This document shows, piece by piece, positions 521 through 61,364 of a DNA stretch of 64,000 nt. This DNA comes from Acidimicrobiia bacterium. GTDB lineage: Bacteria; Actinomycetota; Acidimicrobiia; Spongiisociales; ZC4RG35. How positions within the stretch are numbered: the stretch's first letter is position 1; each line of letters opens with the position of its first letter. The position numbers and the translations under genes were made by a program. The stretch is taken from the NCBI GenBank assembly GCA_041747855.1, contig JBGTEJ010000055.1, forward strand, positions 3,909 to 67,908. Reading direction: 5' to 3'. The notes beneath the pieces were generated by a model, which had not been told where the DNA came from, did no database searches, and saw only the letters and a program-made list of their open reading frames with translations.

Positions 521-2224
521 TTAGGGACCTTCACCTGCCATCTTCGTGGCCAACTTGTACGCCTTCCGTGCCGAGGCCCCCAGTGATTTCAGTTTCCCCT
601 CATTCTTGAAGTCTTTCTTGAAGTCATCGGCCTCTCCGAGGTCGTCATGTCGCTCTGACATCGCCGCAGCTCCGATATACGCCCACCGTGACAGGACCTT
701 GCCGAGATCAGGATCCGAGAGTGCTTTCGCCGGGTCGCCGAGGATTGCGGCGCCGTCCCCCGCCGCCTCGCGGGCGATCTGACCGACCAAATAGCACGCG
801 ATTAACTTGGTCAACAACCAACTGGACCTATAGATCGCCGGAAAATGGGCCTTCTGCTGTTGAACAGCGGCGCGAATCTCGTCAGCTAGCACAATGTGGT
901 GCGCCGAGATGCGCTCGGAGAAGATGTGAGGGTGGTTCTCGGATTCGAAGAGCGATAGCTTCTTGACTGCTAGCCAGGGCCACTCATTGAAGATCGCACA
1001 TAGGATCTGTGCAGCGTCGTCGTTTCTAATGACCCTGGCGGTGCTGGGAGCTACCGAATCTGGGCGCGTCTCATAGAAGATCCCGGGGAATTCTGCCTCG
1101 AACTCGCGGAGAAGGCGCAGTTGCGGACCGCTATTCGCCATCAGGTTCCGGGGGTTCACCGCAGTCTGCGTGTTGGAGCGCCGGCTGACTTCTTTTTCGA
1201 GCAGCGGCCTTCCGGCAACTTCAACGACTTTGACCGCGACTCGAAGGGCACTGGTGAGCTGGCCATCCACGAGGCCACGTTGGAATGCGAGTACCGACTG
1301 TGCCCCGTTCACTACCGATGGATTGTGCACGCTCAGAATGTCGCCCTTGACCTCGAAGCGATCACAAATCACGGTAAGCCCGTTGTGATAGGCAAGGAAG
1401 TCCAGATGTTCGGACTCGGTCGCGATCGCTCGATCGAGACCCTTGCTTACTTTGTTCGCCCGGAGTTGGTGACGCACATTGAGGGCGAACAGCCACCGAT
1501 CGTGAATCCCCGGCCACGCGGCGATGGCCTCCGCCGTCACGGGGATGATTGCCACACGGTTGGGGGGATCACCCGAAATGAGCAGTTCAGTCTGATCCAC
1601 AAAGATCTCGATCGTCCCCTGCAGACGCTCCGGCGACCGTACCGACTCCGCCAATGGGCCCAGCTCATTGATCGTCCACACATCGAGGTAGCCGGCACCG
1701 CTTGTATCGCGGACGCTCTCCACCTTGCTAGCGGCGTCAGTGGTAAGTCGACCGCTTGTGATCAGGACCAGCCGGACGCGAATGCTCTCTGGATCGCGCT
1801 GAAGCTTCGCCTCGAGACCGAGGTCTTCAACCAATTTGCGAAGCGACGGTTCCAGCTTTGCCGCTAGCAGCCTACGCAGCGTGATAGCGTCGGTAAAGTG
1901 AGCGGCCGCACCAGCAAGACGGTCCACATCTGTATCGCCAACCCACCCGTCGGGTCCCTCGGTGTATTTCGACTGGTAGATCACAAGCGTCTCTGGTTCG
2001 TCATCGCCGGACGAAGGCTCGACAAATAGCCCGTCGATGCCTTTGTCATCATCACCATCACACACGTAGTCGTAGGCGTCGATATCGCCTATGCCTACAA
2101 CGTTCCGGAGAAACCAGAGCAGAAGTACGGACCTTGGCTTGGCCAAGCCTCCCGACTCGTCAGTAGTGGCCTGGGCGCCCAGAGTCTTGTAATAGGCCTT
2201 CTGCTTGGCGCTCGACACTTGCAT
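521..2224 (-). CDS. AIPR-family abortive-infection-like protein
   Basis: 567-aa ORF with ATG start. N-terminal VCDGDDDKGIDGLF and central NGLTVICD...VVNGAQS motifs resemble the AIPR (abortive infection phage resistance) family as I remember it. Confidence 0.6.
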   Translation of the reverse strand: MQVSSAKQKAYYKTLGAQATTDESGGLAKPRSVLLLWFLRNVVGIGDIDAYDYVCDGDDDKGIDGLFVEPSSGDDEPETLVIYQSKYTEGPDGWVGDTDVDRLAGAAAHFTDAITLRRLLAAKLEPSLRKLVEDLGLEAKLQRDPESIRVRLVLITSGRLTTDAASKVESVRDTSGAGYLDVWTINELGPLAESVRSPERLQGTIEIFVDQTELLISGDPPNRVAIIPVTAEAIAAWPGIHDRWLFALNVRHQLRANKVSKGLDRAIATESEHLDFLAYHNGLTVICDRFEVKGDILSVHNPSVVNGAQSVLAFQRGLVDGQLTSALRVAVKVVEVAGRPLLEKEVSRRSNTQTAVNPRNLMANSGPQLRLLREFEAEFPGIFYETRPDSVAPSTARVIRNDDAAQILCAIFNEWPWLAVKKLSLFESENHPHIFSERISAHHIVLADEIRAAVQQQKAHFPAIYRSSWLLTKLIACYLVGQIAREAAGDGAAILGDPAKALSDPDLGKVLSRWAYIGAAAMSERHDDLGEADDFKKDFKNEGKLKSLGASARKAYKLATKMAGEGP

Positions 2225-2453: not shown

Positions 2454-3329
2454 TTACGCACGAGGGTCCTCCTGATTAGCAAGGCTTCGCAGTTCCAGGC
2501 AGGCCTTGTACAAGACGCGCTCGAGTTCGAGCTCGGTGGGAATGCCGTCTCGCCGTCGGTATGCAGTCGTGGTGCCAGCGATCGGCTCGTAACAGTAAAG
2601 GCCGACCGCGTCGACGATCTGCTGGGCCGTATGCGCCCAGCGCACGGTCGCGGCGAAATCTGAGTCGCTCAGGACCCGGACGGCCAAGAACACATAGATC
2701 GTCGGAGGGTTTGCCCGCAACCATGTCGTCAGGTCGGACCCACCAGCGCCTCCACCGGCTGGCAGGTTTCCCTCAATCGTCTGTCGCCGGCTGTACTCGC
2801 CCTTAAGATCGATCGACTTGAATGCCAGTTCCTTGACTCGCTTCCCCACGTCCGCCGATCCACGTCGCCCTACTGGCTTCTGTTTTGGACTCAGCGCATG
2901 GCGGGGTGTGCCCATCATCTTCGCTTCAAGCAAGAAGCGGATCGGGCCCTCGGCCGGGTAGACACCATCCAGGTTGTGCTCAGGCACGATCAGCCCGGGA
3001 ACCTTGTTGCGTGTGTACAACCTGCCGATCTCGGAGCAATTCTCCAACAGTAAGGCAAGCAAGTCGTTGAAGAAATCCCCCTTGCCGTTCTGGATATCAG
3101 CGGAGAGCGCGGTCCGTTCGGAGTCCGTCAGAGAGGTGTCGGCTGTGGCCGCAAGATCTGTATCGAAGGCTGACATCGCGGCTAGGAAGCCCGACTCCAC
3201 TTGGTTCCAGCTAGCTGCGTTCGATGCGGCAGCAGCCGAGTAAAGCTCCCGCTGCGGCAGACAGCGCGGACTCGTGGCCACGACGTCGCTGATCTTTCGG
3301 GGCTGGCTTATCGGTTGCGCCACACTCAT
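2454..3329 (-). CDS. putative type II restriction endonuclease (PD-(D/E)xK-like)
   Basis: 291-aa ORF starting 22 nt downstream of the methyltransferase stop, same strand. NLDGVY ... LLEAKMMG fits a D...ExK nuclease core. No family recognised. Confidence 0.45.
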   Translation of the reverse strand: MSVAQPISQPRKISDVVATSPRCLPQRELYSAAAASNAASWNQVESGFLAAMSAFDTDLAATADTSLTDSERTALSADIQNGKGDFFNDLLALLLENCSEIGRLYTRNKVPGLIVPEHNLDGVYPAEGPIRFLLEAKMMGTPRHALSPKQKPVGRRGSADVGKRVKELAFKSIDLKGEYSRRQTIEGNLPAGGGAGGSDLTTWLRANPPTIYVFLAVRVLSDSDFAATVRWAHTAQQIVDAVGLYCYEPIAGTTTAYRRRDGIPTELELERVLYKACLELRSLANQEDPRA

Positions 3330-3351: not shown

Positions 3352-5043
3352 CTAAGTCTCTAGCGACAACGCCACCAGCGACGGATCGAGGTCGAAGACA
3401 GATGAGGCTAGGTCAGTGGCAGCCTTCCGGTCACGGGTTCTAAATGCTTCGATCAACCCATGACGAGTTGGACCATTGATATCCGTGGGATCTGGAACTC
3501 TCATCCTTCGGATGTATTGCGCCTGGAAACGATAGGTTCCACCCCGCATCTTGACGCAATAGGCGCCTATCAAGGCATTCGCCACATCCGAGAGCAGGAG
3601 GCCACCGAGAACCTCGAGATCCCATTCTTCCGACACGATGAAGTACAGGTTGTGATGCGGGTAGCGATCACCTTTGTCGAGCACAGGATTGGAGCGAGCT
3701 TTGATGTCTGGCAGCACCAGCTTCTCACGCATCTGCAAGGTCGGATCGACCTTATCGATCGTGCGGTACCAAGAGTGTGGTCGTCGCCTCGCCACGTGGC
3801 GGCCCCGAAGTCTCTCCTCGTTGGCTTCGAAGTAGGCCCTCAGCCGTGGATAGTCCGCAAGGTCAACCAGGTCGTCATCCTTCCACGGGTTCACCAGGAA
3901 GTGTCCGGCCCAGTCTGCCCTTCCTCCGGCCGTGTCACGTGCAAGCAAGAGTGGTAGCAATCGATCTTCCTCGACAAGAGAGGTGTCCGAAGTGATGTAC
4001 ACCTCGTCGCAGCCAGTTGCCACACCAATTCCCACTCGGGTTGCCGTATTTCTGCTCTCGAGCAGTGGAAATCGACTTTCGAGTTCGGCGACCAGCGCCT
4101 GCCGTGCCGGGTTACCCGATGGCCACGATGCTTTGCCGGAGAACCACCTCTTGAGTCGAACACCATCGGCGGCACTGCGACTTATGGCTGGTGACTCTTC
4201 CTCGATCCAAGTACTCACGGCCTTAGCATCCACGGGACCGAATCCCGCGCGGGCGTCCACGACATTTACGCCTTCCTGGCTTCCTTGGCGGAGTACCACG
4301 ATCGCCGGGTAGGCGGACACCTCGTCCTCAAAGGCATCGACATCGTGCATGCTCACGACAGAGTCGATGGCGTAGCGTGAAGCAATAAGTTCCCGCAGCG
4401 CACCGCCGTACTGGTTATGCATCCACCGGTCGGCACAGATGAAGCCCAGTCTCCCACCGTCACCCAGCATCCGGAGGCCGACCTCGATGAACCCCACGTA
4501 GATGTCGCTGCGGCCCCGCATCGTCGGACAAGCGCGCCGGTATTCATCGGTAAGCGGGCGAGGCACATCCTCAAGTCGGATGTACGGCGGATTGCCCACG
4601 ACGAAGTCGGCACAAGCAATTGGATGAGGGTGGAGGAGAAAGTCGGCTGTCGTCACCCACCTCGAGGCGAGATTCTCCGAGAGGTCAATCGAGTAGCCCA
4701 GATCAGTAAGCTGCTGTATCACAGCCTTTCGAGCGAGCTCGACATTGGACTCCAGTAGGTCGAAGGCTCGAATGGCGCCACCAGTGGTCGCAAGATCCCT
4801 GTTGTTTCGATCACAGGCTTCAACGAGACGACTGACCATCGGATTGAGGAAGGCTCCGGTTCCGCAGGCGGGCTCGACGATGATCCGCCCACCGAGGTCC
4901 TCGTCAGGTCGATACCCGACAAGGTCCAAGATGAACTCGACCACCCAATGGCGGGTGAACACTTCACCGTAGTTGGACTGACCCAGCTCGTCGGCCGGGA
5001 GGACTACCGTCGGCAGGAGACTGAGCTGTGATGTGGCTTTCAT
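3352..5043 (-). CDS. N6-adenine DNA methyltransferase (gamma class, Eco57I/TaqI-like, with C-terminal specificity domain)
   Basis: 563 aa. SAM motif VEPACGTGAFL lies upstream of catalytic VVGNPPYIRLED. The C-terminal half (VGIGVATGCDEVYI) looks like a TaqI-type target recognition domain. Confidence 0.8.
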   Translation of the reverse strand: MKATSQLSLLPTVVLPADELGQSNYGEVFTRHWVVEFILDLVGYRPDEDLGGRIIVEPACGTGAFLNPMVSRLVEACDRNNRDLATTGGAIRAFDLLESNVELARKAVIQQLTDLGYSIDLSENLASRWVTTADFLLHPHPIACADFVVGNPPYIRLEDVPRPLTDEYRRACPTMRGRSDIYVGFIEVGLRMLGDGGRLGFICADRWMHNQYGGALRELIASRYAIDSVVSMHDVDAFEDEVSAYPAIVVLRQGSQEGVNVVDARAGFGPVDAKAVSTWIEEESPAISRSAADGVRLKRWFSGKASWPSGNPARQALVAELESRFPLLESRNTATRVGIGVATGCDEVYITSDTSLVEEDRLLPLLLARDTAGGRADWAGHFLVNPWKDDDLVDLADYPRLRAYFEANEERLRGRHVARRRPHSWYRTIDKVDPTLQMREKLVLPDIKARSNPVLDKGDRYPHHNLYFIVSEEWDLEVLGGLLLSDVANALIGAYCVKMRGGTYRFQAQYIRRMRVPDPTDINGPTRHGLIEAFRTRDRKAATDLASSVFDLDPSLVALSLET

Positions 5044-8797: not shown

Positions 8798-9925
8798 ATG
8801 GCGCATATGAGAAGGAAGGGTTCGGGTCAGTGGCAGGTTCGGTACCGGGACCCATCCGGCATTGAGCGAGCCCGAAACTTCCACCGGAAAGCGGATGCCG
8901 AGAAGTTCCTGGTGACCGTCGAGGCGGACAAAGTACGAGGGATGTGGGCGGATCCTCGCCTGGCAAAGATCACCGTTGCCGAGTGGTTGCCTACGTGGCA
9001 GGAGAGCAGGGTCCACCTTCGACCTTCGACGCGTGCGATGTCGGAGTCACTTCTGCGGAATCACGTGATCCCCTACTTCGGTGACCGGCGTCTCGGCTCG
9101 GTGACTCCAACGGTCGTCCAGGGGTTTGTTGCTCACCTCGAGGAGAAGGGTCTGGCGCCGTCGACGATCCGCCAGTCCTACCTGCTGGTCGGGGGCCTAT
9201 TCTCCTCGGCGCTCGAATCCGACCTCATCGTCCGCTCTCCCTGCCGTGGGATCAAGCTGCCGAAGAGCTCTCAGACCGAGGTGCGTTTTCTCACCACTGA
9301 AGAGGTGACCGATCTCGCAGAGGTGATCGATGACCGCTATCGAGCCCTTGTGCTGACAGCCGCGTACGCCGGCTGTCGGTTCGGAGAGCTTGCCGGTCTA
9401 AAGACACACCGTCTGGATCTGCTCAGGCGAAGTCTCACAGTCGCCGAAGCGCTCTCCGAGGTGCGTGGACAAGTTCGGCTCGCTCCTCCTAAGACCGCGG
9501 CAGCTCGGCGCCAGCTAGCGTTGCCCAAGTTCCTAACTGAAGAACTGAATCACCACTTGGCTACATGGCCACCCAGTGCGGAGGGGTTCGTGTTTACAGC
9601 ACCTCAAAGTGGCCCACTTCTTCGCCGCAACTTCCGGAGGCGCACGTGGCTACCTGCAGTGAGAGCCTCGGTTCGCGAGCCTTTGCGATTCCACGACCTG
9701 CGGCACACTCATGCAGCGATGCTGATCGCCCAAGGCGAGCACCCGAAGGTCATCCAGAATCGACTCGGACACTCTTCGATCAAGGTAACGCTGGACACCT
9801 ATGGCCACCTCTTTGAGGGGCTCGATGAGGCCGCAGCCGAGCGTCTCGATGCGACATTCCTTCGGACGCCTGCGGAAGTTGCGTTGACTGCAAACCGAGG
9901 GGAAGTTCGACAGGTTCGTCAGTAA
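8798..9925 (+). CDS. int: tyrosine recombinase / phage-type integrase
   Basis: 375 aa. AAGGAG RBS before the ATG. C-terminal RFHDLRHTHAAMLIAQG...LGHSSIKVTLDTYGHL carries the R..HxxR..Y catalytic signature, and there is an N-terminal SAM-like arm-binding region. Confidence 0.9.
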   Translation: MAHMRRKGSGQWQVRYRDPSGIERARNFHRKADAEKFLVTVEADKVRGMWADPRLAKITVAEWLPTWQESRVHLRPSTRAMSESLLRNHVIPYFGDRRLGSVTPTVVQGFVAHLEEKGLAPSTIRQSYLLVGGLFSSALESDLIVRSPCRGIKLPKSSQTEVRFLTTEEVTDLAEVIDDRYRALVLTAAYAGCRFGELAGLKTHRLDLLRRSLTVAEALSEVRGQVRLAPPKTAAARRQLALPKFLTEELNHHLATWPPSAEGFVFTAPQSGPLLRRNFRRRTWLPAVRASVREPLRFHDLRHTHAAMLIAQGEHPKVIQNRLGHSSIKVTLDTYGHLFEGLDEAAAERLDATFLRTPAEVALTANRGEVRQVRQ

Positions 9926-9980: not shown

Positions 9981-10820
9981 CTACGACGGAAAGATCTTGG
10001 CTCGCTGGATACCGAACAGGATGCCGGGACCGCCCACGTGGATGACCGTGGCCTCGCCTTGTCCCTCGATTGATATGGGCCGAAGGGCCTGGGGGTTAGT
10101 CATGAATATCAGTGCTCGATCGGTAATCACGACAGAACCTCCCCAGCCTGACCAGATGCCGGCGACACGAACAACACCGGTCCGAACGACCGCTATGTCA
10201 AAGACGGGAAGACCATCAGCCACGGCCCGAGGAGAGTGCCTCAGCAGCTGGTTGTATGCCCACAAAGGGAGGAGACGCTGCCAACCTGAAAGGTTGACAC
10301 GTAGGCGGCCGGGTCGTTGCTCATGTTCGACCTCGCCAGCGATGTAGGTCGTCGTATTGTGACGGATCTCCAGCAGCTTGTGGCCCCGCAGATCGTGGAT
10401 GTCAGCGTTGACCATCAACAATCGACCGCTCTCGTCGAGGTTAAAAGACAAGCTCTGGAGCGAATCGAAGTCGAATATCGCGAACGGCGCCTCACTGGTA
10501 GTTGAAATCGAACCGACGAGAAGCTTATTGAGTGAGGACGGGGGGACCTGGACACCGCCCCACTGCTGCGGTTCCGCAGTCTTCCACTCATACAGCGCGG
10601 TGTCGGTCAGTCTCAATTGACCACGGGTCACGGCGTCATGGCACGCCGGGCACAGAGCGATCATGTGTGCCTGGTCATGAGTCTGATAGATCGCCCATTC
10701 CCTGATGTGGTGCAGCTCGATGAGCGTATTAGGGCATGCGGGGTTCGAGCATTGGCCCGCGGCCTCATCAAGTAGCGCTGACTTAACCGAAGTCGGTACT
10801 GCTGGGCGATGCTGAGCCAT
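9981..10820 (-). CDS. HNH endonuclease-domain protein with ~190-aa uncharacterised C-terminal domain
   Basis: CSNPACPNTLIELHHIREW...HMIALCPACHDAV (Cys4 plus HH..N/H pattern) in the first 80 aa. The remainder has no recognisable motif. Confidence 0.65.
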   Translation of the reverse strand: MAQHRPAVPTSVKSALLDEAAGQCSNPACPNTLIELHHIREWAIYQTHDQAHMIALCPACHDAVTRGQLRLTDTALYEWKTAEPQQWGGVQVPPSSLNKLLVGSISTTSEAPFAIFDFDSLQSLSFNLDESGRLLMVNADIHDLRGHKLLEIRHNTTTYIAGEVEHEQRPGRLRVNLSGWQRLLPLWAYNQLLRHSPRAVADGLPVFDIAVVRTGVVRVAGIWSGWGGSVVITDRALIFMTNPQALRPISIEGQGEATVIHVGGPGILFGIQRAKIFPS

Positions 10821-10954: not shown

Positions 10955-10982
10955 GCGGACTCCCGCGGATTTTCCTCGAACT
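10955..10982 (+). promoter_or_regulatory. three phased GCGGACT-type repeats (putative arm-type sites, module A right arm)
   Basis: GCGGACT 10955, GCGGATT 10965, TCGAACT 10976. The first repeat starts exactly 101 nt before the att core at 11056, the same distance as in module B. Confidence 0.5.
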
Positions 10983-11055
10983 CTGGTCCGAACCATAGGC
11001 TCGAAGTCCAAAAGCGAGACGGCGACACCCCAGGTAGGTGGGGGTTTTATGGGGA

Positions 11056-11100
11056 TGGAGCTGAGGGGATTCGAACACCTAACCCCTAGACTGCAAGTCA
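11056..11100 (-). repeat. diverged tRNA-Ala 3' fragment (internal att copy separating modules A and B)
   Basis: 40 of 45 nt identical to 13984-14028. One mismatch changes the anticodon position from GGC to TGC. No tRNA 5' half is present. Confidence 0.8.
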
Positions 11101-11497
11101 TTGGAGCGGTTTCGCTGCATGTTCCCGACAGCCCTGCAGTACCTGTGCTCGCCGAGTACTCTGCGGTTATAACTGTTCAGATAGACGTTGAGCTCCAGCG
11201 GGACGCCGCTCTGCGCGGAGTTGTCGGTTCTGTGGGCAAGCAAACTGGCGGCCATATCGCTGTCGCGATCCTCGACTCCGACTGGGCAACGAGCGGCCGC
11301 GGTGAATATGTGGACCCATCAGATCCGGTCGTTCGCATGGCAGCTCACCTGGCCATCAACGAGCATGACGGCGAGTATCCGTGGCCACTAGTCCAGGCAA
11401 AGGGACTACAGCACTATCGGATCGATTCATCCTTTTTCGAGATGGCAGAACGGCGGCTTGGCAGGAAGTGACTGAGTTGCACTAACCGGGGAAGTCG

Positions 11498-11746
11498 TCA
11501 GCAAGATGGTGCCACTTCTCGCCTCGTTTGGGCGTGGTAGCGCTGTAGTAGCTCAGCGTGCTTCGGCGAGATCAAAGCGGTCGACCGCATGTTTTGGAAC
11601 AACTCGTATCGTTCAGCCAACGGCAAGAACTTCTCGTATTCCGCGGCGAACTTGTTGTGCCTGAGCACGGCGAGTTCTTCGGACGAGAGCTGCGCCCTAA
11701 CGAGCCCGGTGTAGGTGTCCGGATGGGGAATCGTCGCTTCGTCCAC
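11498..11746 (-). CDS. hypothetical 82-aa ORF (weak)
   Basis: GTG start only and no recognisable motif. It may be a gene fragment. Confidence 0.25.
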   Translation of the reverse strand: MDEATIPHPDTYTGLVRAQLSSEELAVLRHNKFAAEYEKFLPLAERYELFQNMRSTALISPKHAELLQRYHAQTRREVAPSC

Positions 11747-11926
11747 CTACTTGACGATTCAGTAGGGGTTGCGGAAGTAGTGCCTCAGAAGAGGCTCCCA
11801 TTTCGGGTACTGAAGCTAGTAGATGTATGCAATCTCTCTGACCTGCTTGTGGAGCTTCTCGAGTCATCGGCAGCTAACGGGTCTTCGTTGATCGGGAGGC
11901 GCTTACCGACCCGTCCTGCCGACAAT

Positions 11927-12724
11927 TCATTCGAGGATGCGACGATGGTCGAGCTGACCGACTCGCTCTCCTTGTCGAGCCAAGTAGCGGCGTTGAGTCA
12001 CGCCCCACGCGTCTTCAATGAGGTTGCCTATCGCGAACGCCATATCTTGTTGGAATCCATCGTCTGGTACCTGGTCGAGTTCGAAGTGCCAGAGCAGATT
12101 GTCGTCAGCGCAGCCTCCTACGGAGTTGTCCCACGAACCCGGCTCAGCCCAGCCTTCAGCAACGTTGCCAAGAAATGCGCCCTTGGTTGAGACGAGACCG
12201 ATAGTCAACTGCCAAGGAGTCGGAAGGCCAACGCGGCGGTGAAGCTGGACTGTGAACTTCAGCATCGCCCAGGTGTAGGTAACGATGGAGGCAAGGGCGA
12301 AGGTCCGGACGGTTTCGCCCCGATCATCCTGGTACTCACGCGCGCCGCTACTTCCAAGACCGAGCTCGATGGCGCCAGAGCGGTGAACACCAAGGAATCT
12401 CCTCCATGCCCCATCCCTGCCGTGATCATTAACCACGACCGCGGCATGAGCTGTGGGGAATGTCTGGTAGCCAAACCTCACACCTCGACCTTCCACTTTC
12501 ATTTCCTGTTCCGCTTTGAACCAGTCCCAAAAGTCTCCATCGAACCACAAAGCATCTCGTTCTGGGTCAGCGGGGAGCAATACGGCTTGCACGGTGAGTG
12601 ATTCGAGCCGTGTTGCCAATCCAACGCCGCCGAAGTCCGATCGTCGAACGTTATCGAGACCGTGGCGGTCGAGAGTCCTACGCCAACGGGCTCGGATTAG
12701 CTCGGTGTCGGCGAGAGACGTCAT
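11927..12724 (-). CDS. hypothetical protein, 265 aa, no recognisable domain
   Basis: ATG 12722-12724 overlaps the TGA of the upstream gene (ATGA). Composition looks protein-like and Trp-rich (WFDGDFWDWF). Confidence 0.6.
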   Translation of the reverse strand: MTSLADTELIRARWRRTLDRHGLDNVRRSDFGGVGLATRLESLTVQAVLLPADPERDALWFDGDFWDWFKAEQEMKVEGRGVRFGYQTFPTAHAAVVVNDHGRDGAWRRFLGVHRSGAIELGLGSSGAREYQDDRGETVRTFALASIVTYTWAMLKFTVQLHRRVGLPTPWQLTIGLVSTKGAFLGNVAEGWAEPGSWDNSVGGCADDNLLWHFELDQVPDDGFQQDMAFAIGNLIEDAWGVTQRRYLARQGERVGQLDHRRILE

Positions 12725-13848
12725 TGCGTCATCTGGCGGCGAAGCCGTACTGTGAAGTCTTCCGCCAGTTCGTTGGTCTGTTGGAGAAGAGCGGCTCGTC
12801 TGCGGACCGGCGGGGACAGCACGACCACGGCCTGGTCGTTATTCCTAAAGCCCATCGTTGCCATGTTTGGGTTGCGCTCTTGTTCGATGCGCGTCCGCCA
12901 AGGCATGTACCCCGCGCCCCGGAGGGCGATTACAGGAGCAGCGTGGCTCAACCGCTCAGCTGAGTCGACATGGTTGAGGAGTCGAGCACAGAAGCGAAGA
13001 CCACTGGCGATTCGGTTCGAGACGTCCTCCTCGATCACAGATCTGATGCCCGACGCCCAGGTGCTCTGATCCACGGCAGGCTGAACGATCAGGAGGTTGG
13101 CAGTCTCGTCGATCGACACCAGACCCGAGCCTCGCTCCTGAGTCAATTGAATCGCGTCCCCCTTGACCGAAACCTCAGTGCCGACCGCCGACGAAAGCAC
13201 CGAATCACTGCCGGTGAGGGCCTCGGACAGAAGAAACCTTCCCAACACATCCTCATCGAGTTCGGCCGGCCGTAGTACCGAGCGCAGCGGTCCGCTTGCG
13301 ACCGCCAGTATGAGGTCAGGGCCACCAGAATGGAGCTCCGTTGGTAGCAGGCCTCGAGCCCGATCAACAAGCTCGGCATGGTCTAGGGGAGCCGCCTCGT
13401 TTGCGAGCGCAAATTCGTAGATGGCACGCATGACTTTGTCGCGTAGCTCAGATGCGTCACTGAATCCGGCAGTGAAGTGCCCACGTTCCCATCCCCTCAC
13501 TTCGCGTATGAACTCTGCCTGCTGCTCCTCGGGGTCAATGCCATCCTGTATGAACACAAGGACCGGTGTCGCATCACGAGCCTCGCGATACTCCTCGTGA
13601 GTTGCCGAGAGTCCAGATGCTTGAACTGCGCCGTACTCAGCACCAAGAATCAGCAGAAGGACGTCCGCATCGCGAACTTCAGCCAGACAGGCTTGCTGTG
13701 GGGTATTTGAAGTCGCGCTGAAGTCTTCGGCCCGAACTGGCGTGTGGCGAAGGTTGGCAACCGCAGACGCGGCGGCGTCTCGAAGGGCTTCCTGGCCACG
13801 GATGAGAGAACTTATGAACACCTGCATCGGACCCATTATCTCTCGCAC
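12721..13848 (-). CDS. DUF4062-like (TIR / nucleoside 2-deoxyribosyltransferase-like fold) N-terminal domain protein with unknown C-terminal half
   Basis: QVFISSLIRGQEALRDAA...PVRAEDF...DADVLLLILGAEYG...SATHEEYREA...PVLVFIQD follows my recollection of the DUF4062 consensus (VFISS..., acidic residue, GxxYG, S.T..EY, hydrophobic strand). The GTG at 13848 is doubtful; ATGs at 13836 or 13827 are likelier starts. Confidence 0.6.
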   Translation of the reverse strand: MREIMGPMQVFISSLIRGQEALRDAAASAVANLRHTPVRAEDFSATSNTPQQACLAEVRDADVLLLILGAEYGAVQASGLSATHEEYREARDATPVLVFIQDGIDPEEQQAEFIREVRGWERGHFTAGFSDASELRDKVMRAIYEFALANEAAPLDHAELVDRARGLLPTELHSGGPDLILAVASGPLRSVLRPAELDEDVLGRFLLSEALTGSDSVLSSAVGTEVSVKGDAIQLTQERGSGLVSIDETANLLIVQPAVDQSTWASGIRSVIEEDVSNRIASGLRFCARLLNHVDSAERLSHAAPVIALRGAGYMPWRTRIEQERNPNMATMGFRNNDQAVVVLSPPVRRRAALLQQTNELAEDFTVRLRRQMTQ

Positions 13849-13882
13849 CTATGACAGAACCGCGGTCAATTGGGGCCGTTCC

Positions 13883-13910
13883 TCGGACTCCTGCGGACTC
13901 TTCGCGGACT
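13883..13910 (+). promoter_or_regulatory. three phased GCGGACT repeats (putative arm-type sites, module B right arm)
   Basis: TCGGACT 13883, GCGGACT 13893, GCGGACT 13904. The first starts exactly 101 nt before the tRNA 3' end at 13984. Confidence 0.5.
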
Positions 13911-13983
13911 CCTGGCCAAGACAGCGTCCGCGAGATCATCCGTCGGGACAGCAAACCCCCAGGTAGAAGAGGGTTTTTAGGAG

Positions 13984-14057
13984 TGGAGCTGAGGGGATTT
14001 GAACCCCTGACCCCTTGACTGCCAGTCAAGTGCTCTGCCAGGCTGAGCTACAGCCCC
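13984..14057 (-). tRNA. tRNA-Ala (anticodon GGC)
   Basis: Reverse complement is GGGGCTGTAGCTCAGCCTGGCAGAGCACTTGACTGGCAGTCAAGGGGTCAGGGGTTCAAATCCCCTCAGCTCCA. It has a 7-bp acceptor stem with G3:U70, anticodon loop CTGGCAG and a TTCAAAT T-loop. CCA is not encoded. Confidence 0.92.
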
Positions 14058-14108: not shown

Positions 14109-15071
14109 CTATTCGGACTCTGCCGATTTCCCATACCCGGTCACCAGCGCACGCCCGAGATCGGCGAGGACTCCACGCAGGTCACTCGGATCCTCGACTT
14201 CGAACGAGAAAGGCAGGCTAACCAGGTAGCGGGCAAGCCAACCCAGGTCGTCGGCCCCGATCAAGAGCCGAGTGCGCACGGGCCCGGCACCTTCCAACGA
14301 CCCTACCGACGGTGGTATCGATCGACGGACGATCTCGATAGGGGCGTCGAGCATGATCACCGCCCGAATGCTGTATGCGTTCACGGCAACACCCGTGGTC
14401 ACCATTTCGACGGGGTCGGGGGCGGGACGCCTGGTAGAACGAATGCCGGTCGCTCGGGCTCCTGACAGCCGGTCCATCCGAAAGCTTCGCCAGTCGTCCC
14501 GGTCGAGGTCGTAGCCGGCGAGGTACCAACGTCGTCCCAGATGAACCACCTGGAGCGGTTCCACGTGCCGTTCGGTCTGTCGGCCAGCGGAGTCCACGTA
14601 CCCGAACCGCAACCTGATCCGACTCCTGGCGGCACCAGAAACGACGGCCAGTTCGGCCGGGTCGATCATGACATTGCCGAAGGGCACCGTCACCGTCGAT
14701 TCGGCGATGTCGTTGAGACGGTCACGCAACTTCGGTGGCAGCACTTGTTCAAGTTTGGCCATAGCCGAGAGCGAGGAGTCCTCGATGCCAGCCACCGCCG
14801 AGGTAGCCGCAATCCTGAGCCCGACCGCGACAGCGAGCGCCTCATCGTCGTCGAGAAGAAGGGGAGGGAGCTTGCCACCCGCCCCTAACCGGTACCCGCC
14901 CCCTGGACCGGCCAGCGCCTCCACCGGGTATCCCAACGAACGCAACCGGGCGATGTCTCTCCGGATCGTCCTGGGAGTGACTCTGAGCCGATCCGACAAC
15001 TGGTCCGATGTCCAGTCGACCCTGCCCTGCAACAGGGCGAGAAGCTTGAGTAATCGTTCTGCGGTGTCCAC
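14109..15071 (-). CDS. HTH-WYL domain transcriptional regulator (YafY-like)
   Basis: N-terminal LLKLLALLQGRVDWTSDQLSDRLRVTPRTIRRDIARLRSLGYPV and a central HLGRRWYLAGYD WYL motif. Confidence 0.8.
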   Translation of the reverse strand: MDTAERLLKLLALLQGRVDWTSDQLSDRLRVTPRTIRRDIARLRSLGYPVEALAGPGGGYRLGAGGKLPPLLLDDDEALAVAVGLRIAATSAVAGIEDSSLSAMAKLEQVLPPKLRDRLNDIAESTVTVPFGNVMIDPAELAVVSGAARSRIRLRFGYVDSAGRQTERHVEPLQVVHLGRRWYLAGYDLDRDDWRSFRMDRLSGARATGIRSTRRPAPDPVEMVTTGVAVNAYSIRAVIMLDAPIEIVRRSIPPSVGSLEGAGPVRTRLLIGADDLGWLARYLVSLPFSFEVEDPSDLRGVLADLGRALVTGYGKSAESE

Positions 15072-44265: not shown

Positions 44266-44340
44266 GGGTGACCGACGGGACTTGAACCCGCGACTTCCTG
44301 GACCACAACCAGGTGCTCTACCAGGCTGAGCTACGGCCAC
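44266..44340 (-). tRNA. tRNA-His (anticodon GTG), with encoded G-1
   Basis: Reverse complement is G-GTGGCCGTAGCTCAGCCTGGTAGAGCACCTGGTTGTGGTCCAGGAAGTCGCGGGTTCAAGTCCCGTCGGTCACC. Confidence 0.9.
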
Positions 44341-44360
44341 CATGTGTGAATGGGACACCG

Positions 44361-44434
44361 GCGCCCTCGGGAGGACTCGAACCCCCAACCTACGGATTAG
44401 AAGTCCGCCGCTCTATCCACTTGAGCTACGAGGG
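44361..44434 (-). tRNA. tRNA-Arg (anticodon TCT)
   Basis: Reverse complement is GCCCTCGTAGCTCAAGTGGATAGAGCGGCGGACTTCTAATCCGTAGGTTGGGGGTTCGAGTCCTCCCGAGGGCG. The acceptor stem pairs fully. Confidence 0.9.
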
Positions 44435-44471
44435 CCGTGGTTCCGGTACCGCCCCGAGAGGCGACCCATTC

Positions 44472-44542
44472 GAGCGGGTGAAGGGAGTCGAACCCTCGCC
44501 ACCAGCTTGGAAGGCTGGAGCTCTACCGTTGAGCTACACCCG
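44472..44542 (-). tRNA. tRNA-Gly (anticodon TCC)
   Basis: Reverse complement is GCGGGTGTAGCTCAACGGTAGAGCTCCAGCCTTCCAAGCTGGTGGCGAGGGTTCGACTCCCTTCACCCGCT. Confidence 0.9.
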
Positions 44543-44571
44543 CGATTTGAACGGACATTCTAGATGACCGG

Positions 44572-44645
44572 TCGGGCTGGTCGGACTTGAACCGACGACC
44601 TCCTGCTCCCAAAGCAGGCGCGCTACCAAGCTGCGCCACAGCCCG
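44572..44645 (-). tRNA. tRNA-Pro (anticodon TGG)
   Basis: Reverse complement is CGGGCTGTGGCGCAGCTTGGTAGCGCGCCTGCTTTGGGAGCAGGAGGTCGTCGGTTCAAGTCCGACCAGCCCGA. Confidence 0.9.
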
Positions 44646-44694
44646 GATCAGGGGTAATGGTACCGCCGCCTCTGGCTTCAGCCAGATTCGTTGA

Positions 44695-45039
44695 TCACCC
44701 CAGCGCCATGAGGATGACGAATATCACCGTCGCAACAAGTGGAGGCCCCAGAAGCGCGGCCACTATCTGACCGTTCCTGGTGGCGATCAGACCACGAATG
44801 ACTAGGGCGGAAACACCGATGGCGATGATCGCCACCACCGCAAAGGCTATGTAGATGGCTGCGACCAGATCCTCCCATCCGTCGAGGTCGCGACCGGAGA
44901 AGATGCCCAATCCGGCCAGTCCGAGCACTACAACGGCCCAGACCAGCAGGATTGTCCGAGCAGTTCGATCGAGCGTCTTCTTGGGCGGTTCGGGTGGGGT
45001 TCCTTCTGTCCACGTCATGGCATCGATCCTATCGGACAT
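44695..45039 (-). CDS. small membrane protein (3 predicted TM helices), unknown function
   Basis: 114 aa with hydrophobic runs ILLVWAVVVLGLAGLGIF, AIYIAFAVVAIIAIGVSALVI and VAALLGPPLVATVIFVILMAL. Confidence 0.5.
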   Translation of the reverse strand: MSDRIDAMTWTEGTPPEPPKKTLDRTARTILLVWAVVVLGLAGLGIFSGRDLDGWEDLVAAIYIAFAVVAIIAIGVSALVIRGLIATRNGQIVAALLGPPLVATVIFVILMALG

Positions 45040-45089
45040 TGCTCCTCGGGTGCGGCGAATCTGTCACAGCCCCCACGTATCTTCCAATC

Positions 45090-45794
45090 ATGGAACTCGA
45101 GGCGATCTTCCTCGAGCGGGTGAGGAATTGGGACAATCTGTCGAGATGGGAACGGTCGGAACTCGGCCGGGACCTCAGGCGCAGCGGACTGGCGTACAGC
45201 GAGATCATGGAGATGATCCCGGTCCAGAAGTCGACCCTCGCTACCTGGTGCCGGGACGTCCAACTGACCGAAAGTCAAACTGCGGCTATCAAGGTCCGGA
45301 AACCGTCCACTCAGCGCGGCATACCTCGGGACACTCAGCGCAAAAGGCACCGAATGATCGAACTCATTCAGGCCCAAGCTGCGCTCGAAGCCATCCACCT
45401 GCAGGATGAACCACTTTGGACAATGGGAGTCGCGATGTATTGGGCCGAAGGGACCAAGTCTTCGAGACGACTTGAACTCTCTCACTCAGAACCCGAAGCG
45501 CTCCGGCTCTTCATGGAATGGTCTCGCCGATACCACCGACCTAACGCCACCTTCGCCGGAGCAATCAACCTCCATGCAGACAACGACGAACAGTGGGCAA
45601 AGTCGTTTTGGTCGACGCAACTTGCGATCGACCTCTCAGATTTCACCAAGACGTTCGTCAAGCCAGATGGGACCGGTCATCGTAAGAACCACCTCCCCTA
45701 CGGCGTGGCAAGGGTCACGATGAGGCGCAGCACCGACGCCTTCATCACCACCATGGCCTGGATCGACTTCGTCAAGGAGGGCTTCGCAAAGTAG
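45090..45794 (+). CDS. hypothetical protein with N-terminal HTH-like segment and C-terminal LAGLIDADG-like segment (tentative)
   Basis: From ATG 45090. GLAYSEIMEMIPVQKSTLATWCRDV resembles a resolvase-type HTH. GVAMYWAEGTKSS..LELSHSEPEALRLFMEW resembles a degenerate LAGLIDADG helix-strand unit. Confidence 0.4.
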   Translation: MELEAIFLERVRNWDNLSRWERSELGRDLRRSGLAYSEIMEMIPVQKSTLATWCRDVQLTESQTAAIKVRKPSTQRGIPRDTQRKRHRMIELIQAQAALEAIHLQDEPLWTMGVAMYWAEGTKSSRRLELSHSEPEALRLFMEWSRRYHRPNATFAGAINLHADNDEQWAKSFWSTQLAIDLSDFTKTFVKPDGTGHRKNHLPYGVARVTMRRSTDAFITTMAWIDFVKEGFAK

Positions 45795-45804
45795 AATTCG
45801 AGAG

Positions 45805-45878
45805 GGCCGCTAGCTCAATTGGCAGTAGCAGGAGCCTCTTAAGCTCAAGGTTCCGGGTTCAAGTCCCGGGCGGCCCAC
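45805..45878 (+). tRNA. tRNA-Lys (anticodon CTT)
   Basis: GGGCCGCTAGCTCAATTGGCAGTAGCAGGAGCCTCTTAAGCTCAAGGTTCCGGGTTCAAGTCCCGGGCGGCCCA. Confidence 0.88.
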
Positions 45879-45921
45879 CCCTCATATCGATCTCCCTGAT
45901 GACACAATCTGTCCGGTCAAC

Positions 45922-46005
45922 GCGGGTGTGGCGGAACTGGCAAACGCGCAGGGTTTAGGTCCCTGTGGGGTAACACCCTTGGAGGTTCGAATCCTCTCAC
46001 CCGCA
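45922..46005 (+). tRNA. tRNA-Leu (anticodon TAG), long variable arm
   Basis: GCGGGTGTGGCGGAACTGGCAAACGCGCAGGGTTTAGGTCCCTGTGGGGTAACACCCTTGGAGGTTCGAATCCTCTCACCCGCA. Confidence 0.9.
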
Positions 46006-46294
46006 CTCGCCCTGCTCTAGTGCCGGAGGCGTCATGTCGGGCTTCGGAAGGAGGGGGTCCGCAACTACGCACCCCCTCCCAACAGGCAGGCGCCCAAAGA
46101 CCTGCCCTCTCCGCTTGGCCCGTATCTCAAGTGACCGGAGTCAGTGCCCCGCTTCTACCCCTACCCCGCAGTTCGCAAACCCTCAGGAGTAGCGCTATCA
46201 CAATCTGGAAGAGCGAACCTTCCCTAACGACGTGGCGAGCTTCCAAGGGGCCCGTCGATCGGCCCCGCTGCCTCTAATGGACGGGTCCGCCTGC

Positions 46295-61012: not shown

Positions 61013-61364
61013 TGGTGGAGGTGCGGGGAGTCGAACCCCGGTCCGTTGAGTCGTCAGCGAAGGCATCTCCGAGCGCAGTCGTCAGCGAGCTTCGAGAGCA
61101 GGAACCCTGACGACGAGTTTTCCTACCTCTATTCGGAGTTGGTCTTAGCCGTCAGGTCCCGAAATCCCTGACGGAGCATCCCGCATTGCGGCGCCCTGGC
61201 CCGACCCGGCGGGTACGGGTCGGCAGGACGGGCTGTTTATTTAGGCAGCCAGTGCGAAGTTATCTTCGGCACTTGTTTTGTTTTTCCGGTTTGTTAACGA
61301 GGCCCCGGAGACCTCGGCTCGCTTCCAACGCCTCAACACTCAACGTCGAAACCGTTTCACCCCC
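61013..61364 (-). ncRNA. ssrA: tmRNA (ssrA)
   Basis: 5' GGGGGTGAAACGGTTTCGAC and 3' GGTTCGACTCCCCGCACCTCCACCA form an alanine-type acceptor stem with G3:U. The internal tag reading frame GCC GAA GAT AAC TTC GCA CTG GCT GCC TAA (stop at 61241-61243) follows an A-rich tract. Confidence 0.92.

Follow-up and report, generated by a model that had tools for sequence, protein, structure and literature searches.

A tRNA-proximal gene pair in an Acidimicrobiia genomic island: a DUF4062 protein and its translationally coupled partner as a candidate two-gene variant of DUF4062 defence systems

The subject of this report is a pair of overlapping genes, termed A and B below, that lie on the minus strand of a 64,000-nucleotide (nt) stretch of DNA from an Acidimicrobiia bacterium (assembly GCA_041747855.1, contig JBGTEJ010000055.1, positions 3,909 to 67,908; this whole stretch is referred to as 'the window'). 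A first-pass annotation, made from the letters of the sequence, had described two translationally coupled genes beside a tRNA-Ala gene, had matched the first of them to the DUF4062 consensus, and had proposed that the two form the effector and the sensor of an undescribed defence system. The two minus-strand open reading frames (ORFs), their ATGA overlap and the neighbouring tRNA gene are all confirmed by the ORF list, the sequence and ARAGORN/Rfam, and every peptide motif quoted in that annotation is found in the translations of A and B. The features of the pair, in window coordinates, are the following.

12721..13836, minus strand: gene A, encoding a DUF4062 domain (a predicted TIR-like NADase) and a C-terminal AUX domain; 371 amino acids (aa) from ATG 13836
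GTG 13848 (375 aa) and ATG 13827 (368 aa, conserved in most homologues): alternative starts of gene A
13399..13836, minus strand: TIR/NDT-like (nucleoside 2-deoxyribosyltransferase-like) catalytic domain of A, approximately residues 5-150 in the 375-aa numbering
13579-13824, minus strand: Pfam DUF4062 match in A, residues 9-90
13591..13593, minus strand: codon of the Glu predicted to be catalytic, within the motif S-A-T-H-E-E-Y (E86 of the 375-aa form, E82 of the 371-aa form)
12724..13395, minus strand: AUX domain of A, residues 152-375, a family-specific alpha/beta domain
12721..12724, minus strand: ATGA overlap of the A stop and the B start (B ATG 12724-12722, A TGA 12723-12721, read from the sequence)
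11927..12724, minus strand: gene B, 265 aa, a partner protein of an unannotated family
13849..13982, minus strand: upstream region of the operon, forming the left-end island flank beside the tRNA gene; presumed location of the promoter
13983..14057, minus strand: tRNA-Ala(GGC), the integration site (ARAGORN; Rfam tRNA, 67 bits)

The two proteins and their families

A and B are regarded as real genes rather than chance ORFs because A has 796 homologues (the best 120 of the 796 being full-length, at 48-89% identity), while B has 135 in a first search and 559 clusters at 50% identity, 188 of which fall below an E value of 1e-30. The true start of A is probably ATG 13836 or ATG 13827, and not GTG 13848 (which lies 135 nt from the tRNA-Ala gene), because homologues mostly begin at the Met of 'MQVF' and because an identical 371-aa protein (P0121) is on record; residue numbers below follow the 375-aa form. 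The overlap of the A stop codon with the B start codon implies translational coupling. A promoter scan upstream of A found no sigma-70-type consensus, a result that is uninformative for a high-GC organism.

The assignment of A to DUF4062 proved correct: the Pfam model PF13271 matches the protein at 77.9 bits (cutoff 24.7; E 7.1e-22) over profile positions 1-82 of 82. The AlphaFold2 (AF2) model of A has a mean predicted local distance difference test score (pLDDT) of 84, and Foldseek searches with its N-terminal domain retrieved both an NDT (8pqt, target TM-score 0.56) and the TIR domain of RRS1 (4c6s, target TM-score 0.64), with further matches to the RRS1/RPS4 TIR pair (4c6t), to TIR-STING (9lmq) and to TcpB (4lqc). 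The TIR/NDT-like fold that had been anticipated for the DUF4062 part of A is therefore upheld by matches to structures of both kinds.

DUF4062 domains have been described as TIR-like NAD+ glycohydrolases in single-gene abortive-infection systems, where a DUF4062 core is joined to a variable AUX region that is needed for defence (10.64898/2026.05.01.722283; 10.64898/2026.06.25.731849). Two lineages have been named. The first is Swarozyc (Osinski et al., 2026 preprint; PDB 10wc, 11cq and 11cv), whose member KpSwz has E97 as its catalytic residue, assembles into an oligomer that inhibits itself, and becomes active once its AUX region binds the phage portal (10.64898/2026.05.01.722283). The second is Evangelion (Ibarra-Chavez et al., 2026 preprint; Eva01-04), in which Eva01 carries F11, an E87-Y88 motif and a 'Q/W/E' motif that includes W51-E52 (10.64898/2026.06.25.731849).

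Residues 8-91 of A align without gaps (phmmer, E 0.045) to the DUF4062 chain of KpSwz (10wc_A), and this alignment sets E86 of A opposite position 84 of the deposited chain, which reads SFTEKAF where the family consensus has a Glu followed by an aromatic residue. The Ala of that segment would correspond to the authors' E97A mutation, which would place E97 opposite E86, given a numbering offset deduced from the printed chain. E86 is accordingly the predicted catalytic Glu of A, and it also matches the 'E-Y' motif at E87-Y88 of Eva01. E86-Y87 of SATHEEY is invariant in 64 of 64 aligned family members (37 homologues and 27 A-type proteins, including those without a B gene), as are the FxSS and S-x-T-H-E-E-Y motifs in the aligned A family. 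The Glu of the AEDF motif, which the first-pass annotation had singled out for mutagenesis, aligns to 'GMELF' of KpSwz and is not the catalytic position, whose predicted equivalent in A is E86.

The remainder of A is less familiar. No Pfam match recurred at E values up to 1 among 14 AUX sequences, and an AUX profile found no chain in the PDB, that of KpSwz included. PADLOC returned no match to A, with a library (PADLOC-DB v2) that dates from 2023 and predates the DUF4062 work. Because the AUX domain has neither a Pfam nor a PDB match, and because the segment presumed equivalent to the Q/W/E motif reads S-P-Q-x-A-C, A is classed from its sequence as a member of the DUF4062 superfamily that belongs to neither of the two named lineages.

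Gene B encodes an acidic protein without a transmembrane segment, and nearly all members of its family are stand-alone proteins of 250-275 aa. Conservation is concentrated in the motifs RARWRR, LLPADPE, HRSGAxExGLG, GEGWAEP and EDAWG; R11, R13, W14, R16, F31, P54, G117, E120, G124, G191 and P195 are invariant, at least 90% of sequences keep R115, W192, E194 and C205, and R140 and E237 are further near-invariant polar residues. The AF2 model of B has a pLDDT of 94.3 and a predicted TM-score (pTM) of 0.92. In searches with that model, the best Foldseek match in the PDB has an E value of 8.5e-3, with TM-scores of no more than 0.31 (to TBP/AdoMetDC-like sandwiches), and BFVD yielded nothing. Sequence searches were equally bare: a profile search of the PDB was empty, Pfam, NCBIfam and PHROGs gave no match, and Pfam at E values up to 1 gave no recurring match on 31 B sequences. 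Profile scans found no SIR2, SLOG, Macro, transmembrane, nuclease or protease domain in B, and no match to a helix-turn-helix (HTH) or ribbon-helix-helix (RHH) domain. Against PADLOC, B has only a chance-level match to Cas2 (E 0.016) and 31 homologues of B have none. The statement that no motif could be placed in B or in the C-terminal part of A is thus repeated by Pfam, NCBIfam and PADLOC, and the pairing is not a named system in PADLOC, no model of which matches either protein.

Two further leads concerning B were pursued and discarded. Longer matches to B were set aside as clues to its function, since they proved to be a deletion fusion of AUX and B (P0278), a read-through from an insertion sequence (IS) transposase (P0363), or frameshifts. 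A distant paralogy of A and B, which had been hinted at, is without statistical support (hhalign P 0.18-0.58): profile-profile comparison of B with full-length A gave a probability of 0.3%, and comparison of B with AUX gave P 0.58 (local) and P 0.68 (global). Self-comparison revealed no internal repeats. A short look-alike does exist ('LSHAAPVIALRGAGYMPWRTR' in A, 'TAHAAVVVNDHGRDGAWRRF' in B), and the order of secondary-structure elements is similar; neither counts as evidence.

Linkage of A and B, and what the pair may do

In scans of genomes and metagenomes, together with look-ups of contigs, approximately 24 of 26 informative loci have a full-length A-type gene, complete with its AUX domain, immediately upstream of B. 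The hosts of these paired loci belong to Actinomycetota, Chloroflexota, Acidobacteriota and Gemmatimonadota, and the most divergent homologues in them retain 27% identity to the window's A and 30% to its B. At 15 of the 20 A-B junctions that were measured, start and stop codons overlap by 4 nt (ATGA or GTGA). The co-occurrence of the two genes across genomes, on which the original proposal depended, is therefore real. In one Chloroflexota metagenome-assembled genome (MAG; L010, 1416-2991), A precedes a tandem of two overlapping B paralogues; both are intact, at 42% identity to each other, and they represent an old duplication. At another locus (L038) an IS element is inserted in A and B is intact, and one frameshifted B was found among the junctions examined. 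Independent in-frame deletions in L028 (423-1270) and in protein P0278 leave part of A fused to B's C-terminal half, and such fusions are decaying copies of the module.

The settings in which the pair is found are also consistent, in that known defence or mobile-element genes are present in all ten annotated contexts, as had been expected for a system of defence islands. The neighbours include AbiEi/AbiEii, HEPN_Apea, NYN, Eco57I/MmeI, GmrSD, AAA_15/21, type I restriction-modification (R-M) and Mrr genes, and additionally ThiF/E2/JAB, DUF1156, TIR_2, RES, AIPR, integrases and transposases. In two loci the pair lies within approximately 0.3-0.5 kb of a tRNA gene (tRNA-Gly in L024, 6490-6563; tRNA-Val in L005, 2402-2495), and this association with different tRNAs indicates that different integrative elements carry the pair at their tRNA-proximal edge. 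No B was found in IMG/VR, INPHARED or PLSDB, and no A in phage genomes or viral contigs. A conserved third gene was sought and rejected, the neighbours on both sides differing between loci.

This distribution bears on whether the pair serves anti-phage defence at all, as opposed to NAD or nucleotide metabolism, competition between bacteria, or control of the transfer of the island. The pair is always found on islands, so a role in the biology of the element itself is conceivable, and some DUF4062 proteins act outside immunity (TEP1, of the eukaryotic vault). However, its occurrence over four phyla is patchy and horizontally mobile, the ten contexts described above hold defence or mobile-element genes, and the nearest characterised relatives are defence systems, so that a function other than anti-phage defence appears quite unlikely. 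Both A and B seem to be cytoplasmic, with no signal peptide or transmembrane segment evident, which argues against a secreted toxin.

The divergence of the two proteins provides a further link between them. Among 18 pairs, the pairwise identities of B follow those of AUX with r 0.93 (0 of 5000 permutations in a Mantel test); the partial correlation between AUX and B, given the N-terminal domain, is 0.74, and that between the N-terminal domain and B, given AUX, is 0.31. The catalytic domain has a mean pairwise identity of 0.56, as against 0.44 in AUX and 0.40 in B. Divergence that is faster than that of the catalytic domain is the usual pattern for sensing parts.

The interpretation favoured here is that the pair would be a variant of the DUF4062 abortive-infection family (Swarozyc/Evangelion-type) that has two genes and travels as cargo of an integrative island, at its tRNA-proximal edge. 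Its effector would be A, in which a TIR-like NAD+ glycohydrolase domain (with E86 in SATHEEY) is joined to its own 225-aa AUX; upon activation by infection, A would deplete NAD+ and thereby stop both the infected cell and the phage. B, which would be made in step with A by means of the overlapping stop and start codons, would most likely contact AUX and tune either the trigger that is sensed or the strength with which the NADase is restrained. For this combination, in which infection switches on an NAD+-depleting effector and an accessory subunit sets its trigger or threshold via AUX, a probability of roughly 0.45 seems appropriate, which is to say somewhat short of even odds. The division into 'effector plus sensor' offered by the first-pass annotation is likewise an inference.

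Several observations weigh against a subunit that is dedicated to AUX. The correlated divergence of B and AUX can stem from co-inheritance alone, and the conserved Arg, Glu and Cys positions of B would fit an enzyme or a ligand-binding site just as well. In addition, each gene is found without the other. A occurs without B on large replicons of Rhizobium, Cupriavidus and Methylobacterium and in one Frankiaceae MAG, with no B within approximately 5 kb, and these B-less proteins keep the same AUX domain and an intact catalytic motif. B occurs without A in two loci (L013, 3214-9870; L021, 10001-11823), where it is next to other TIR genes (TIR_2, ThsB_TIR), an arrangement that an AUX-specific subunit does not predict. 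Individual examples of B-less A genes are L046, 4569-5675 (Rhizobium leguminosarum pRL9b5, WP_166472038.1), L047 (Cupriavidus p2, WP_220631944.1) and L048 (Methylobacterium bullatum). In a neighbour-joining tree, which is tentative on account of its midpoint root, the proteobacterial A proteins form one clade that is nested among B-linked clades. B is thus dispensable for keeping A, an accessory component rather than an obligate half of the pair, and because intact A-type genes persist without it, B is neither an essential antitoxin nor the only output of A.

The same B-less genes count heavily in the assessment of a toxin-antitoxin or immunity pair, in which A would be a constitutively dangerous NADase and B a stoichiometric inhibitor whose loss frees A, with stabilisation of the island as the main benefit. 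The tight translational coupling and the presence of the pair on mobile islands would suit such an arrangement, and there are established examples of NADase toxins paired with a dedicated immunity protein (SPN-IFS, Tse6-Tsi6 and TNT-IFT). However, the loss of an essential antitoxin should forbid exactly what is seen in several genera and in the Frankiaceae MAG, namely a catalytically intact A without B; KpSwz, moreover, inhibits itself by oligomerising, B exceeds the usual size of an antitoxin and lacks a DNA-binding domain, and in L038 it is A that is disrupted by an IS element and B that is intact. An antitoxin role for B is therefore judged highly improbable.

The A-less B genes lead to a different set of alternatives. 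In Amycolatopsis, a TIR_2 gene follows B at a distance of 39 nt; in a Longimicrobiales genome, TIR_2 and then a transmembrane protein gene precede B, and two ThsB_TIR genes and a MAP3K_TRAF_bd/TPR-S gene follow it, so that B stands directly upstream of the ThsB_TIR genes. The Amycolatopsis TIR_2 protein was considered as a carrier of AUX and rejected, as it does not share that domain of A. These layouts are reminiscent of thsA-thsB, and a Thoeris-like scheme can be drawn from them, in which A would sense phage via AUX and turn NAD+ into a signal for which B is both receptor and effector; the Swarozyc authors allow that DUF4062 operons may act in more complex ways than NAD+ depletion (10.64898/2026.05.01.722283). 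The characterised DUF4062 enzymes, however, yield ADP-ribose and nicotinamide and no cyclic signal (10.64898/2026.05.01.722283), the persistence of intact A without B in a whole proteobacterial clade means that B cannot be its sole output, and B has none of the effector domains listed above and no structural match. Furthermore, A is once more the partner in close relatives of the Longimicrobiales A-less B, and the TIR neighbours show no relationship to one another beyond the TIR domain, which fits chance co-location in a defence island. A Thoeris-like division of labour consequently appears improbable.

Alternatively, B might act on the NADase reaction, as an accessory enzyme or as a binder, and be usable with any TIR-superfamily NADase, either by removing ADP-ribose or nicotinamide against the reconstitution of NAD+ by phage or by countering phage inhibitors of TIR proteins. 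Such a role would accommodate its three TIR-superfamily partners (DUF4062, TIR_2 and ThsB_TIR), the fact that it is dispensable for A, and the occurrence of invariant R11, R13, R16 and E120, with near-invariant R115, R140, E194, C205 and E237, in a compact and confidently modelled fold. It is about as improbable as the signalling scheme, for B has no recognisable catalytic fold or motif, the proposal draws on two A-less loci only, and it leaves unexplained why B tracks AUX more than the catalytic domain. In its most general form, B would found a family with a new fold that serves TIR-superfamily enzymes at large (DUF4062, TIR_2, ThsB), as a receptor and effector for an NAD signal or as an enzyme that destroys NADase products or phage counter-measures. 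This broader idea is unlikely, but its consequences would be considerable: were B a receptor or effector, some DUF4062 enzymes would signal and not merely deplete NAD+, and in either form a new layer would be added to NAD-based immunity.

Anatomy of the island

Together with the tRNA-Ala gene, copies of its 3' end divide the island into an inner and an outer module. The additional features that define these modules are as follows.

11044-11102: internal copy of the 3' end of tRNA-Ala, degenerate (76% identity across the 59-nt repeat); far boundary of the A-B module
317-375: distal copy of the tRNA-Ala 3' end, with the 45-nt tRNA core exact; end of the integrase-bearing module
521..2224, minus strand: AIPR protein, distal cargo of the integrase-bearing module
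2454..3329, minus strand: unannotated 291-aa ORF, distal cargo of the integrase-bearing module
3352..5043, minus strand: Eco57I-type N6 methylase, distal cargo of the integrase-bearing module

The inner module (11102-13972, 2.9 kb) contains A, B, an 82-aa putAbiC-like C-terminal fragment and a 140-aa ORF, and has no integrase. The outer module contains an HNH-like protein, a tyrosine integrase (8798..9925, plus strand), an HTH_17 protein, a metallophosphoesterase, the Eco57I-type methylase and the AIPR protein, the last two of which agree with the R-M/AIPR island that had been reported next to the pair. The description of the pair's island as 'integrase-less' consequently holds for the inner module and fails for the adjoining one. 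In a related metagenomic element, an A-B pair with 86% DNA identity to that of the window lies between the same attachment-site-like (att-like) sequence and an integrase with 77% DNA identity to the window's; a DinG-like helicase is added there, and TrwC and AbiE are found farther along. Because this element joins the pair to an integrase, 'integrase-less' is a local feature of accretion in the window and not a feature of the gene pair.

Three 10-bp direct repeats, GAGTCCGNNG, are found at 13881-13912, and they recur at 10960-10991 and in a related element (L016, 5900-5965). They form part of a similar block of approximately 130 nt that stands behind both the true tRNA and its internal copy, and the repeat block also adjoins the att copy of L016. 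The repeats are probably arm-type recombinase sites, or else an operator upstream of A, and the tRNA-side and internal blocks suggest, as read from the sequence, that two related elements lie in tandem, each block being the left end of one. A 140-aa ORF follows B both in the window and in L016; the two ORFs were compared as a possible shared gene and are unrelated to each other.

Other features of the island and its surroundings may be noted. Between the internal att copy and the integrase, a 279-aa protein (9981-10820, minus strand) matches HNH weakly at its N-terminus (E 2e-4 in Pfam; also several PHROG HNH families) and has a C-terminus of approximately 200 aa that is uncharacterised. The 82-aa ORF (11498-11746, minus strand) matches only the C-terminal part of putAbiC (positions 33-76 of 80 in profile PF16872, E 2e-7); a remnant of an abortive-infection gene is the probable explanation, and the ORF was left uncalled by the gene caller on an identical contig (L023). 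Directly on the chromosomal side of tRNA-Ala, a WYL/HTH_11/WCX regulator (PafBC-like) is encoded at 14109-15071 (minus strand). Farther away, six tRNA genes (His, Arg, Gly, Pro, Lys and Leu) are clustered at 44266-46006, and a tmRNA with the tag AEDNFALAA lies at 61013-61364.

Significance and comparison with known systems

It was not until 2026 that DUF4062 NADases became known as immune effectors, and the Swarozyc and Evangelion papers present single-gene systems. The locus described here reveals a large, mostly uncultured and actinobacteria-centred branch of DUF4062 proteins with a different, presumably sensing, domain, in which the predicted enzyme is almost always coupled to B, a protein whose fold has no known relative. 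The role of B could reveal how TIR-like NADases are held off and triggered, whether a downstream component is fed, and how DUF4062-type systems diversify the range of their triggers. B should also be a useful marker of defence islands in Actinomycetota, Chloroflexota, Acidobacteriota and Gemmatimonadota, where defence catalogues are thin, and the B-less A genes of Proteobacteria, whose hosts are cultured, offer convenient material on what A does alone.

The claim that the pair is an undescribed defence system stands in part. The AUX type, the B family and the coupling of the two genes are absent from the Swarozyc and Evangelion papers; the DUF4062 effector itself, on the other hand, has already been described. 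The Swarozyc paper reports operons only with already known defence domains (10.64898/2026.05.01.722283), and B, this type of AUX, and the terms 'operon', 'two-gene' and 'partner' do not appear in the Evangelion text. A third preprint ('A widespread NADase domain links bacterial immunity with human TEP1'), as far as its title and the terms counted in its full text extend, concerns the same family, with DUF4062 renamed NIR, and contains 'two-gene system' once and 'operon' once (10.64898/2026.09.04.749371). Because of that mention the priority of the A-B pairing is uncertain, and the pair may already be the 'two-gene system' of the NIR preprint.

Comparison with Thoeris (a ThsA effector and a ThsB TIR sensor) shows a common plan, in that each consists of two genes that combine a TIR-superfamily enzyme with a non-TIR partner, and the B family occasionally adjoins genuine ThsB_TIR or TIR_2 genes. 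In contrast to Thoeris, however, A matches only PF13271 and not PF08937 or PF13676 (ThsB_TIR and TIR_2), B has no ThsA domains (SIR2-SLOG, TM-Macro), and A-type genes persist without their partner. Type II toxin-antitoxin systems have a small antitoxin, often DNA-binding, that is essential wherever the toxin occurs; B is 265 aa long and without an HTH or RHH domain, and intact A-type genes exist in its absence.

The closest relationships are with the DUF4062 systems. The single-gene architecture of Swarozyc and Evangelion is replaced here by one with B conserved downstream, although the related proteobacterial clade is single-gene. In comparison with Swarozyc, similarity is limited to residues 8-91 of A, AUX has no detectable relation to the KpSwz chain, and KpSwz is a single gene with a portal-binding AUX, where the present locus has a second conserved gene that is translationally coupled. 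The two nonetheless have in common an N-terminal DUF4062 TIR-like domain with an equivalent (in A, predicted) catalytic Glu (E86 of A, E97 of KpSwz), a helical segment followed by a C-terminal AUX, residence in defence islands and horizontal spread. The Evangelion proteins are single genes with a short AUX region that are enriched on resistance plasmids of Firmicutes and Proteobacteria, and their Q/W/E motif is not kept in A: 'EEQWEF' of KpSwz, which we take to be that motif in an alignment made to KpSwz and not to Eva01, faces 'TPQQAC' in A (S-P-Q-x-A-C in the family consensus, with the Cys invariant). A and Eva01 nevertheless each have a DUF4062 core whose N-terminal aromatic residue is F11, together with an S-x-T...E-Y catalytic motif, and for both groups, each of which is carried on mobile elements, co-evolution of the core with AUX has been proposed.

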